The position numbers were made by a program. DNA of 8,484 nucleotides from a virus (taxonomy: Duplodnaviria > Heunggongvirae > Uroviricota > Caudoviricetes): positions 1-8,484 of the IMG/VR virus record IMGVR_UViG_2690316316_000010. One strand, given 5' to 3'. Below, piece by piece: positions 1 to 3,000 of the stretch (position 1 is the stretch's first letter; every line of letters starts with the position of its first letter).

Positions 1-3000
1 TCAGCTTTTCGCCAGAACGGTGACGGCCTTATCGAGTTTTTGCCATCCGCAATAGGTGATTGCCCTGAACGCTGTAGCGTCATTCTGGAAAAGGCTAACC
101 GCCCCTGATTCGGTTTTTATTACCGCCTCATCAGTTGGGGTTATAACCGTGGCTTCAACGTTAATAATCAGCTTTTGAGCGTCTATCAGCATCATGCGAT
201 CCGCCTGTTCGCTCACAATTACCGGTATTCTCAAAAGCTCTATCTGCCAGAACTCAGCATCAGTAAGCTGTAAGGCGTTTTCTACGGGCAAGATTAGCGA
301 CGACGTGGAAAGCGTGTTACCGTTCGCTATGTGCTTTTTGAAAAGCTCTATGAAGTTTTCGGCCTCATCAGCACCATTAAGCACGCCCTCAGGGGATACG
401 CCAGCCACCTCCTGGTCACTGGAAAGAAATTTTTTATCTATTTCTTTCACCGATTCCGATGTGATCAAGTCTCTGATCGCTGAATTTGTACCAGGGGTGC
501 TAAATTTGATTAGCTCGTTATTCAGCATCACAATAGCGCCAAGTTTGCACAGTTTTAGCGCACTTTCGTTTACTTCTCCCTCTTTGACAGGGATTTCTTC
601 GGCTTCTTTAAGCCATTTACTGCCCTTGCCTGATATTGACTGCAATTTTGCGCCAAAAGGAAGATTTAGCGCGCTGCTGATTAGCTTGCCTGGTACAGAC
701 TGCGAAAAAATATACTCGCCAAGCTCTCTTACTATCGGCTCTGCCACCAGCGACGGCATGTTATCCGTGTTCATTCCTGCTACTACGGATTTTTCAAGAA
801 ATAACGATACTGCCGGATCATTTCTTTTCGTCATCTCTATAGCGTCAGCATGGCTAAATTTACACGATGCCAGCACGCTGGCGGCGCGAACTGCTGACAC
901 GCCTTTCATGTTTTTACAGATCATCTTCTTCCTCCTCCTGGAAGCACGGGTTTAGTGTTTCGTGAAAATATGGCATCAGAACAGCGGCGGCCTGTAACCG
1001 TATTTCGGTCGACTGCTGCTTGTCGTTCATGATTTCCGTGAGTACATCAATAGGGTCTGTGATGTATTCGCTCATAGTTCGCTACCTCAGTGTTTTAAGT
1101 CTGTTGGTGGCTTAGGGATGGGGAACCGATTTGAGTAGACACTAGCGGCATTGAGTTTTTTAACCTCTTTTTTCCCAATGCTGCCGATCTTGCGGTGGGT
1201 GAACTGGGCCAGCTTAAACGCGGCATCTAAAGCCAGTTTTGGATCTGTGTCCATGTTGTCAATCAGTATCCTGCCCATTGCTTTGATGGGGTCGGGTAGG
1301 CCGTTATCCATCATCTCAATGGTGTTAATTGATGCCCGTTCCGGTGTAACTTTTTCGGTAACTTTCTTTGTAACTTTTTTCGGTTTTGTAACCTGAAAAG
1401 TTACATCAGGAGTTACAGCCTTAAGATACTTTTTCACCTCAGGATCGTTGGATAGCTGCCAGCCTTTGACCCTTGCGGTCTTTTCGCTGTATCCCGCATG
1501 TATAGCGGCTTCCGTGGGATTTGCGCCCCTTGATAACGCATCAGCAAACCGCTTTTTTTTGGTCGTTAATGCCATGCAAAAACCTCGTTTTGAGGGGGTG
1601 TAACTTTTCGTGTAACTTTTTTGAAAAGCAAAATTTTCTACGAATGAGACGGGGGGCGGTGTCCAGGGCGATCGACTTTCCGGCCGGAACACTCCCCCCC
1701 CCTGTCATTGCTCACCGAGTAACGAGATCAGGCCTTCAACTTCATCACTCAGCTTGTTTATTCGTCTCTCAAGCTCTGCGATCTTTTCCATTAATGGCGC
1801 TATCGTGTCTCTTGTTTCCTCGCCAATGGCTTTAATGATGCTTGCCTCGCGTTCTGTGATAGCCATTGTTATTCCTCACCTGTTGCAATGCCCAGGCGTT
1901 CGCGTAACAGCACGCGAGCAAGATGGCCTACTGTTGGCGTGGCGGCTCTGCCGTATATACCAGCTTCATTCATCCGGCGAATAACATCGAATTGAAGTTT
2001 TTTAAGCTCGTTTAGGATCTCGTGATCAATCATCACGGTAGCGCTTTGCTTTATCTGTTCCACTTTGTTTCCTCCTGATGCTTATCATCTAATAATCAGT
2101 ATTTTCGATAGATTATAATCAATCAACCATTTTTTAAGATATGCGAGATCGAAAAAAAGCCGGATTGCTCCGGCTATGTGTTCACTACTTCGGTTATTCT
2201 CCAGCGCTTTTAACGTTGATGGTTGTTACCTGTTCCGCTTCGGCAATCTCCCGTTCTGTCAGCGTGGCAAAGTTTGCCGCCGTCGTGGTCATGAATGCGC
2301 TTATCAGGTCGGGATGTGCTTTCGCGTATCCTTCCCCCGCGTGGCGGTCTATCGTTCTGATTGCCACCTTTAAGGTATGCTCAGTCATGTCTAACGCTTT
2401 ATATTTTGGCTCTGTTCTGTCTCTGCGAATTTTGATCATTTGTCGCCCCTGATTCATGTTTTCGGCTGGCATGTTTGTTAAGTGATTTTGATGTATGCGC
2501 ATTTATTTTCACCCCCTCGTTTAAAAAGTTTTTAGTTGTGCCTCCCCCCCTCTACCCATCTACCCGAATGCTCATCATGTCAGTAATGGCGCGGCTTTCA
2601 GCGGGTAGATAGCTTTTTGGGCTCCTCTACCTGCCGTCTACCCTGCTACCTGAAACTGATAAAATCAGGTAGAAGAGGTAGAGAGCTTTTATTAGCCTTC
2701 TACCTGGCCCTCTACCCACTTATCATGTTGAATAATATGCGTTTATTTCATTCAGGTAGATGGGGTAGAGGGCTTTTACAAAAAATTATAAAAACGCGTC
2801 GCAATCGTCTGTTGTAATTGCGTTGGTCTGCGTTACTCCCTTAACTTTTCGCGTAATATATTCATGCCCGTAAACTTTCGCCGCTGGCTTCATGGCCTTG
2901 CTGAACTCAGCCACGTTTAGCGGTTTGCTCCTGCCTGCGTATGCCATAAACGCCAGATAGACGCGGTAAAGGCTGTTCCTGGTCGTGTACTTCACTGAAT

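Follow-up and report, generated by a model that had tools for sequence, protein, structure and literature searches.

Candidate cosB-like recognition repeats for a small terminase at the cos site of an Escherichia coli phage satellite, most of them located within terS

Introduction

The recognition sites of small terminases (TerS) are known for only a handful of phages, and it is still debated whether these ring-shaped proteins read DNA by wrapping it or by threading it. An HNH endonuclease gene followed by terS and the gene for the large terminase (terL, TerL) is the arrangement typical of HK97-like cos packaging. Here we analyze an array of GTAAC/GTTAC repeats in and next to the terS gene of an 8,484-nucleotide stretch of viral DNA (IMG/VR record IMGVR_UViG_2690316316_000010, positions 1 to 8,484), which is called the window throughout. 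The window is a satellite of E. coli phages of about 8.5 kb and of the phage-inducible chromosomal island (PICI) type; its minus strand carries int, alpA, a primase gene with an origin of replication (ori), terS and a gene for a capsid-like protein.

Phage SPP1 has two separate binding regions, pacL and pacR, for its small terminase gp1 (G1P), and its pac site overlaps with both gene 1 and the ribosome-binding site (PMC6316719). The HK97 protein is the only small terminase of the cos/HNH class with a DNA-bound structure (PMC11331095). For the Shiga toxin 1 (Stx1) phage Lys8385Vzw a 3' cohesive end, CGCCCCCCCT, was called by PhageTerm from the termini of sequencing reads (PMC7946995). According to surveys, PICIs commonly carry terS (PMC6092414; PMC10085698). 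A preprint on capsid-forming PICIs lists the packaging strategies of satellites: a copied helper cos (P4, SaPIbov5), an own TerS together with Ppi (pac-type Staphylococcus aureus pathogenicity islands, SaPIs), Rpp adaptors (lambda-type phages) and complete capsid-forming islands. The combination of an own complete TerS with a cos site that shares the cleavage sequence of the helper and has private repeats is not on this list. We found no description of this cos site or of the GTTAC repeats in the literature on PICI packaging, of which our search was incomplete.

We propose that the repeats are recognition elements for the small terminase, arranged like a two-part cosB, in a cos site of the satellite rather than in a pac site. 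Comparison with related loci leads us to give this reading a probability of roughly 70%. Elements of this kind, i.e. cosB-like TerS elements, are known; what is unusual is that most of the array occupies linker codons of its own presumed reader.

Results

Eight repeat cores in and upstream of terS

A preliminary description of the window, made from its sequence, had listed eight copies of GTAAC/GTTAC in about 270 bp, mostly at a spacing of 12 bp. The eight cores are indeed present in 271 bp (1346-1616): on the plus strand GTAAC starts at 1346, 1358, 1370, 1388, 1600 and 1612, and GTTAC starts at 1400 and 1412. The 12-bp spacing holds inside each run (1346/1358/1370, 1400/1412 and 1600/1612); of the successive steps between runs, the one from 1370 to 1388 is 18 bp and only the next one is again 12 bp. 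Tandem Repeats Finder reported period-12 arrays at 1346-1384 and 1598-1620. The copies were also said to lie both upstream of the terS start and within terS, and they do so, at 1600-1620 and 1345-1417, respectively, with terS being a minus-strand gene. However, the intragenic copies do not belong to the 5' coding region, as had been thought; they occupy codons 54-77 of 162, in the middle linker of the protein. A second correction is that two of these six copies are inverted relative to the others. Read in the direction of terS, the two inverted copies (TGTAACT; cores 1412-1416 and 1400-1404) precede four direct ones (cores 1388-1392, 1370-1374, 1358-1362 and 1346-1350). Each copy encodes Val-Thr, so that this dipeptide is spelt six times in the linker.

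The clustering exceeds what base composition would produce. The whole window has 27 GTAAC/GTTAC cores where 11.8 are expected, a number reached in none of 200 shuffles. With 19 cores in the remaining 8.2 kb, about 0.6 would be expected per 271 bp, and the Poisson probability of at least eight is about 3e-7. The 10-mer AAAAGTTACA, as read on the coding strand of terS, has five exact copies, all in 1345-1620; its expectation is 0.63 even if one mismatch is allowed, and 0/200 shuffles reached five. All six exact copies of GTAACTTT in the window fall within the repeat region. Among close relatives the number of copies inside terS ranges from four to six, through exact deletions of 12 bp and 24 bp. 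The 12-bp spacing occurs also in non-coding DNA, both in the window and in a related island (L005, see below), which indicates that it is not merely an effect of the reading frame.

The repeats adjoin a conserved homologue of a cos cleavage sequence

Relatives of the locus were gathered by protein and locus searches and comprised 11 phage and satellite lineages. Immediately upstream of the proximal repeats lies a region (Table 1) which aligns, on the minus strand from 1703 to 1634, with the HNH-terS intergenic region of Stx2a_1447 (L002). The two share a G-run, a spacer, GGACAC, a C-rich 10-mer and then CTCAC/CTCAT...AGAAAA. In the alignment across satellite and phage lineages (A3) the invariant columns are the G-run, GGACACC, CTCTCA / CTCA and AGAAAA, and the flanks aligned around the 10-mer are invariant in six lineages. 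The satellite 10-mer matches the cohesive end of Lys8385Vzw at 9/10 bases; the deposited record of this phage ends with ...GGACACCGCCCCCCCT and starts with CTCACGCAGAG. The paper on Lys8385Vzw was the only one found in a literature search for the cohesive-end string. From this homology we predict a cut between 1649 and 1648 on the minus strand; the packaged end would start at 1648 and run towards terS.

Like the HNH-dependent cos sites of the Stx type (Lys8385Vzw / Sawaravirus type), the site in the window has the homologous cohesive end and its flanks directly upstream of terS. Unlike them it has no cognate genes for HNH nuclease and large terminase beside it, although the related island L005 has an HNH gene. 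Neither HNH nor TerL was found in the window by gene calls, Pfam and phrog matches, and no lysis, tail, portal or large-terminase genes are among its genes. A helper must therefore supply HNH nuclease and TerL, a situation that fits a satellite.

The preliminary description had viewed the array as a candidate pac or TerS recognition site, by analogy with pac-type phages and SaPIs. At a headful pac site, as in SPP1, P22 and pac-type SaPIs, the repeats would be bound by TerS, and an imprecise cut made by the large terminase in their vicinity would yield terminally redundant and permuted DNA. This view is not without foundation: the TerS of the window is a member of Pfam Terminase_2 with the DNA-binding fold of SF6/SPP1 G1P, both SF6 and SPP1 are pac phages, pac overlaps terS in SPP1 and P22 (PMC6316719), and pac-type SaPIs carry a TerS of their own. 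A headful site, however, goes with imprecise cleavage and without a conserved cohesive-end sequence, whereas these repeats adjoin a conserved homologue of a reported 10-nt 3' cohesive end and the HNH-type relatives are reported to be cos phages. All phage relatives have an HNH gene directly upstream of cos-terS-terL, the HK97-like cos arrangement. Furthermore, lineages with different repeats agree base for base in the cleavage region, as expected for a sequence-specific cut. We regard a headful pac site as improbable. On this indirect evidence the headful framing was probably wrong, while the idea of a small-terminase signal that doubles as coding sequence is supported by the comparison.

Repeat position and repeat type across lineages

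The repeats of the 11 lineages are of two types, GTTAAC (type A) and GTTAC (type B). Stx-type phages of E. coli have five copies of ATGTTAAC(TG), in both orientations, at the position equivalent to the proximal repeats. GTTAAC is also present in the Citrobacter prophages L014 and L016, as (AT)GTTAAC at this same position, and in the E. coli prophage L174; L016 and L174 have one further copy in the terS linker, at +259 from the inferred cut. The type-B repeat, AAAAGTTACA(C), occurs in the window, in L005 (a second E. coli satellite family with its own HNH), in L173 (an E. coli element with terS beside a type I restriction system), in the Salmonella satellite-like loci L009 and L010, in the metagenomic satellites L169 and L172, in the Hafnia alvei prophages L007 and L008 and in the terS-terL contig L171. 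The first repeat core starts between +31 and +35, counted from the inferred cut, in 10/11 lineages; the exception is L174, whose copy at +34 is degenerate (GTTGAC) and whose intact cores begin at +42. This fixed distance between the motif and a conserved cos cleavage sequence, in phages as well as satellites, supports the earlier idea that coding sequence serves here as a DNA signal.

A second cluster is found inside terS in all type-B lineages; in those with a short leader and a cut that can be positioned it lies at +223 to +303. Its layout in 6/8 type-B lineages (window, L007, L009, L169, L171 and L172) is one or two copies in inverted orientation and then one to four in direct orientation, while in L005 and L173 the intragenic copies are direct with one inverted copy last. 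The Hafnia prophages combine type-B repeats and a type-B TerS with an HNH-terS-terL-capsid-portal module. Type-B repeats are also found in satellites that lack terL and HNH, and in L173 terS is the only packaging gene. The fact that terS is the sole packaging gene common to the type-B elements makes TerS the obvious reader of the repeats. GTTAC repeats accompany TerS proteins with W/C/Y39 and V/I-K-x-Y at residues 47-50, and GTTAAC repeats accompany proteins with S39 and L/I-A-F, a co-variation backed by only about 2 and about 4 independent lineages. The array resembles a cosB-type element in these respects: short repeats on the packaged side, some of them inverted, of a type that co-varies with the DNA-binding domain of TerS.

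It could also be argued that the repeats are operator sites for a transcription factor, or for autorepression of the terS-capsid operon by TerS, with no role in the choice of DNA for packaging. The two upstream copies are suitably placed 24-45 nt before the terS ATG, and the SPP1 terminase, judging from the title of reference 69 in PMC6316719, represses its own synthesis via pac. But only two copies are placed in this way; the other six lie 160-230 nt into the coding sequence. In addition, the motif keeps its distance to the cos cut and not to the start codon, as seen in L005, which retains its first copy at +33 in spite of a 228-bp leader. Prophages have the same layout, and their late genes are read through from a distant promoter. 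No sigma-70-like promoter was detected on either strand of 1300-2200, with a scan that atypical promoters could escape, so that terS is probably co-transcribed from further upstream. A purely regulatory function is thus less likely still than a pac site; autoregulation by TerS could coexist with a packaging role.

The related loci had some additional features. The TerS of L005 (5348-7423) is 62% identical to that of the window and is encoded in a cos-terS-capsid segment with the island's own HNH gene upstream; its expanded leader contains six GTTAC-type copies and one GTTAAC, and a further GTTAAC overlaps with Ala-Leu-Thr codons in terS. The element ATGTTAAC resembles the terS start itself (ATG/GTG-TTA-ACA, Met-Leu-Thr; L002 2800-2923). 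The second repeat copy of L014, L016 and L174, at about +42 from the cut, includes the terS start codon, and TerS binding in these prophages could directly occlude its own translation start. The Salmonella locus L009 (1532-7993) has a satellite-like segment with SSB, small open reading frames (ORFs), a type-B terS and a 288-aa protein, then a 1.7-kb gap where terL is expected, and beyond it genes for a 644-aa protease-capsid protein and a portal. The locus may represent a satellite that has inserted into the late region of a helper prophage; helper-embedded PICIs are described in PMC10111431. A profile search of contigs with the TerS alignment yielded mostly remote Terminase_2 helix-turn-helix (HTH) matches from Firmicutes and Bacteroidota, the informative ones being the Citrobacter prophages L014 and L016.

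Constraint on the DNA of the terS linker

Codon usage was analyzed in seven type-B terS genes, the proteins of which are 56-65% identical to the TerS of the window. Val-Thr in the linker is always spelt GTA-ACT or GTT-ACA/ACC. In the linker Val-Thr pairs 28/28 Val codons are GTA or GTT (15/27 elsewhere) and 26/28 Thr codons are ACT or ACA (20/56 elsewhere), counts which are inflated by shared ancestry, though their direction is consistent. A codon ending in T precedes each inverted GTA-ACT, whether that codon stands for Ala, Asp, Ser, Gly, Leu or Arg, and TGTAACT, the complement of AGTTACA, is kept in this way. In Hafnia, GTC encodes Val at the place where Val-Asn replaces Val-Thr. Wherever the amino acid is the same, the motif columns have a codon identity of 0.82 and the other columns one of 0.52. 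The fixed spelling of Val-Thr indicates that the constraint acts on the DNA. Conservation of synonymous positions had been suggested beforehand as a check on the proposed signal, and homologues that keep the peptide but not the DNA repeat as evidence against it. We found the former and none of the latter; the Stx-phage clade, the only homologue clade without the motif, has no such peptide either and carries a different repeat.

An AlphaFold2 (AF2) model of TerS, built from alignment A2, has a helical HTH DNA-binding domain at residues 5-54 (four helices, confident) and a C-terminal helical core at 96-147. Residues 57-84 of the linker have a predicted local distance difference test score (pLDDT) below 50 and are predicted to be disordered. 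A peptide in such a linker would be weakly constrained and could carry a DNA signal at little cost to the protein.

An origin at the protein level was considered as well. According to this explanation the linker is a low-complexity Lys-Val-Thr peptide that arose by replication slippage, the DNA motif is its by-product, and the upstream copies are a coincidence or the remnant of a duplication. Near-identical islands do vary in copy number by exact 12-bp units, and repetitive linkers exist in other TerS clades. Slippage of a peptide repeat, however, does not account for one dipeptide being spelt with both orientations of the core, for synonymous positions that are fixed across lineages with only 51-65% protein identity, for the T-ending codon before the inverted copies irrespective of the amino acid, or for the GTC codon in Hafnia once Thr is lost. 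Identical 10-mers stand in non-coding DNA at a conserved distance from cos, and a peptide predicted to be disordered is unlikely to be under selection. This explanation is very unlikely. The repeats can hardly be iterons of a replication origin bound by the primase/replicase either, in spite of their short phased form, A-tract flanks and low G+C content (0.35-0.38), because the window has another dense array at 2540-2780, built of a different iteron (CCCTCTACC / GGTAGAGGG, about a dozen copies), and because GTTAC accompanies terS also in prophages and in L173, where PICI replication genes are different or missing.

Among 160 TerS relatives (phmmer representatives and earlier homologues) Val-Thr linkers are confined to the close clade, so the idea of binding sites in the linker cannot be generalized from protein data alone. 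The remote relatives P0027, P0028 and P0031 also have repetitive linkers, e.g. KVKSEVKKVKSEVKKV and PEPEPEPEPE.

The TerS protein and potential helper phages

The presumed reader of the repeats is a small terminase of the G1P/SF6 type. It matches PF03592 with 42 bits (cut-off 26.1), and its DNA-binding domain superimposes on the SF6 G1P domains 2cmp and 4zc3 with template modelling (TM) scores of 0.82-0.86. It has the N-terminal HTH domain, linker and C-terminal core of this type; the core presumably serves oligomerization. Only SF6/G1P-type terminases, and no Rpp entry, matched TerS in a search of PDB sequences at E up to 1, and the cos site is of the 3'-overhang HNH type and not lambda-like, for which reason an Rpp system was rejected.

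The closest phage TerS proteins come from Stx1/Stx2-converting and related E. coli prophages, with 46% identity to the Stx phage protein (tblastn); the module of these prophages consists of HNH endonuclease, terS, terL and a protease-capsid fusion. Identity between the TerS of the window and the type-A TerS of E. coli is 69% over residues 85-135, 58% in the DNA-binding domain and 7% in the linker. These differences are modest, and the pattern would fit proteins that have the same TerL partner but have diverged in DNA specificity.

The terS region of the window is present in 220/5426 complete E. coli genomes, among which O157:H7 and O111 are frequent. The type-A module, which is carried by Stx-converting phages, is present in 1255/5426, with a median of two copies per positive genome. 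At least one genome has both: strain CFSAN027343 contains the satellite and five type-A copies. A DNA search did not detect a type-B terS beside terL in E. coli, and no TerS of the INPHARED phages covers the Val-Thr linker. This suggests that type B is a satellite-only specificity in E. coli.

Other features of the window

For membership in the Gram-negative PICIs we looked for co-oriented integrase, AlpA and primase-replicase genes with an adjacent ori, a length of about 8-15 kb and no lysis or tail genes, with terS and capsid genes being optional. The window has this gene content, with iterons at 2540-2780 and terS and the capsid-like gene at the distal end, and its layout is that of a standard Gram-negative PICI (PMC6092414; PMC10085698). 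Several small ORFs are encoded in addition, and all relevant genes are on the minus strand (Table 1). In E. coli NZ_CP148374 the island sits between tRNA-Pro and yejO, with 99.9% identity over 1000-2200.

Table 1. Positions of genes and packaging-related elements in the window.
Feature	Position	Strand	Remarks
Tyrosine integrase, int	7267-8484	minus	
AlpA regulator, alpA	6704-6892	minus	PF05930, E 5e-18
D5-type primase	2786-4534	minus	
Conserved cos cleavage region	1634-1703	minus	flanked by the repeats and by the upstream ORF (stop codon at 1705)
Parts of the cleavage region	G9 run 1694-1702; spacer; GGACAC 1659-1664; 10-mer; CTCATTCGTAGAAAA 1634-1648	minus	
Putative cohesive end (cosN core), CGCCCCCCGT	1649-1658	minus	by homology to the Lys8385Vzw end
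Proximal elements, two direct AAAAGTTACA(C) copies 12 bp apart	1611-1620, 1599-1608	minus	+33 and +45 from the inferred cut
terS small terminase, 162 aa	1087-1575, ATG at 1575	minus	Pfam Terminase_2 PF03592, E 1.9e-10; phrog_641, E 3e-43
Distal array inside terS, codons 54-77	1345-1417	minus	+233 to +303 from the inferred cut
53-aa ORF	914-1075	minus	
Capsid-like protein, 307 aa	1-924	minus	

The iteron array at 2540-2780 has copies in both orientations, is located directly 3' of the primase gene and is very likely the satellite replication origin; origins of Gram-negative PICIs map to this place (PMC6092414). A terminator-like hairpin with a T-run is found at 2158-2175 (minus strand), after the gene at 2194-2502, and an AT-rich gap (G+C 0.29) at 2064-2157 precedes the small ORFs before terS. 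The transcript of the packaging operon probably starts in this gap, though no sigma-70 consensus was found there.

An Rfam scan gave no RNA family in the repeat region; the only match was a C4 antisense RNA elsewhere (RF01695, 72.6 bits, 5278-5365, minus strand) with its a1/b1 target (RF03163, 46.8 bits, 5433-5482, minus strand). Together these form a c4-icd immunity module of the P1/P7 type within the satellite, and in the near-identical island of NZ_CP148374 an Icd-like cell-division inhibitor is annotated nearby. In view of this module the long ORFs listed at 5056-5562 and 5513-6646 are probably spurious.

The capsid-like protein aligns (24% identity, E 9e-22) to residues 291-635 of a 645-aa protease-capsid fusion from an E. 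coli prophage with a type-A TerS module; the aligned part is the C-terminal major-capsid portion only. The similarity recalls Ccm of SaPIbov5 and suggests a redirection of capsid size. The product of the 53-aa ORF directly after terS is homologous to the central oligomerization core of small terminases (phrog_641 positions 89-125, E 3.5e-7) and 41% identical over 32 aa to residues 83-114 of a type-A TerS. ORFs of about 50 aa are in the same place in the satellites L010, L169, L172 and L176, and between terS and terL in contig L171. The product may modulate TerS rings or act as a decoy for them.

Discussion

If the repeats are cosB-like elements, packaging of the satellite might proceed as follows. 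The helper large terminase and HNH nuclease would cut the region 1634-1703, which is nearly the same as in the Stx-type phages with HNH-terS-terL, and leave a 10-nt 3' overhang. The satellite would supply its own TerS with its own elements, two at 33 and 45 bp and six at 233-303 bp inside the packaged end. The distal six could be written into the disordered linker because either orientation of the core (GTA-ACT or GTT-ACA) reads Val-Thr. TerS, with its HTH domain on a flexible linker and presumably forming a ring, would bind the elements through several subunits, loop or wrap the roughly 190 bp between the clusters and position the helper TerL/HNH on cosN. The 12-bp spacing would suit successive subunits of a ring in contact with wrapped DNA. 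In this manner the pair of TerS and repeats would divert a shared cutting and packaging machine to the satellite DNA. This pair is probably a private specificity, different from that of resident helper phages, since ATGTTAAC occupies the corresponding place in those prophages of this packaging type that were found in E. coli genomes.

A wider proposal, which we hold only tentatively and consider rather doubtful as a whole, is that cos-terS (about 600 bp) is a swappable address cassette: a TerS DNA-binding domain, its proximal sites and further sites of its own in the linker, in both orientations. E. coli satellites would carry type B, otherwise found only in prophages of other hosts, and so stay separate from the type-A prophages which they rob of nuclease, motor and capsids. 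This would be a fifth strategy of satellite packaging, in which an own TerS and a private cosB act on the helper cosN of HNH-type cos phages. It would also be a case of a protein-coding linker with a sequence dictated by the DNA target of the same protein. A satellite that redirects type-A packaging would affect Stx phage yield and gene transfer in Shiga-toxin-producing E. coli.

Several points weigh against the cosB-like reading. The cut position was transferred by homology from a PhageTerm call in a different phage, and one base differs in the 10-mer. The lineages are related, which means that codon and position counts are not independent events, and in most of them terS starts 61-74 bp from the cut, so that the conserved distal position partly reflects gene structure. 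The helper might in fact be a type-B phage outside the present sample, in which case the repeats would imitate it instead of differing from it. Small terminases often contact TerL through their extreme C-terminal tail; in this part the satellite and Stx phage proteins are only 38% identical, so that cooperation with the Stx-phage TerL is no more than presumed. The HK97 TerS recognizes a single 15-bp site by threading DNA through its channel, and not repeats (PMC11331095). Finally, for this element and its type-B relatives the case consists entirely of sequence comparison.

Relation to described packaging systems

The finding extends known principles and overturns none, as far as comparison of sequences can tell. 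With HK97 the locus would share the HNH-terS-terL type of module, the 10-nt 3' overhang and a TerS site a few turns inside the packaged end (bp 15-29 in HK97) that is associated with A-tracts (PMC11331095). However, the HK97 TerS has no HTH domain and one site, whereas the satellite has multiple repeats and an HTH TerS. No similarity between the HK97 left end and the satellite cos was obvious by eye, without alignment, and we use HK97 as a mechanistic analogue only.

The order of elements resembles that of lambda cosB (R3-I1-R2-R1) and the single R3 of N15, where repeated elements for an HTH-type TerS lie inside the packaged end between cosN and the TerS gene. As in the satellite, one or more copies are inverted and the first is at a fixed short distance from the nick (lambda R3, bp 50-65; satellite, +33), and among lambda relatives specificity resides in cosB while cosN is shared (PMC9026076; PMC6739421). 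The differences are that the lambda TerS belongs to the Nu1 family and that of the satellite to Terminase_2/G1P, that lambda has a 12-nt 5' overhang where the satellite would have a 10-nt 3' overhang and an HNH partner, and that most satellite elements are inside the TerS coding sequence. Nor does the window contain a match to the integration host factor (IHF) consensus, so a lambda-style IHF bend is unsupported.

SPP1/SF6 G1P (pacL-pacC-pacR) is of the same Pfam family and DNA-binding fold as the satellite TerS, and SPP1, like the satellite as we read it, has two separated TerS-binding regions and a signal that overlaps the ribosome-binding site and terS. SPP1 differs in its headful packaging with an imprecise pacC cut flanked by its two sites; both clusters of the satellite are on the packaged side of a conserved, sequence-defined cos cut. 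Furthermore, the coding overlap of SPP1 involves codons of the DNA-binding domain, that of the distal satellite cluster codons of the linker. The satellite family offers a clear repeated element of 7-10 bp in a two-part layout, with spacings of 12 bp within and about 190 bp between clusters, and its two natural specificity types (GTTAC and GTTAAC) are suited for studies of binding, looping and specificity swaps.

Among satellites, the Rpp-type E. coli PICI EcCICFT073 also keeps the helper cleavage sequence with a different cosB, which redirects packaging to the island, and its cos-rpp layout mirrors cos-terS (PMC6739421; PMC9026076). Rpp, however, is an adaptor that heterodimerizes with a lambda-type TerS, whereas the present satellite has clear repeats and a complete TerS from a different family, and would parasitize HNH-type instead of lambda-type packaging. 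Pac-type SaPIs, too, bring their own TerS and recognition site (with Ppi), but their packaging is headful. SaPIbov5 depends on an HNH-type cos helper, as the satellite does judging from its sequence, and has a homologue of the capsid-like protein in Ccm; it differs in having no terS and in copying the whole cos of the helper. Next to these systems the satellite would fill a gap in the catalogue, as an island that combines a cos site with its own TerS and uses HNH-dependent helpers.

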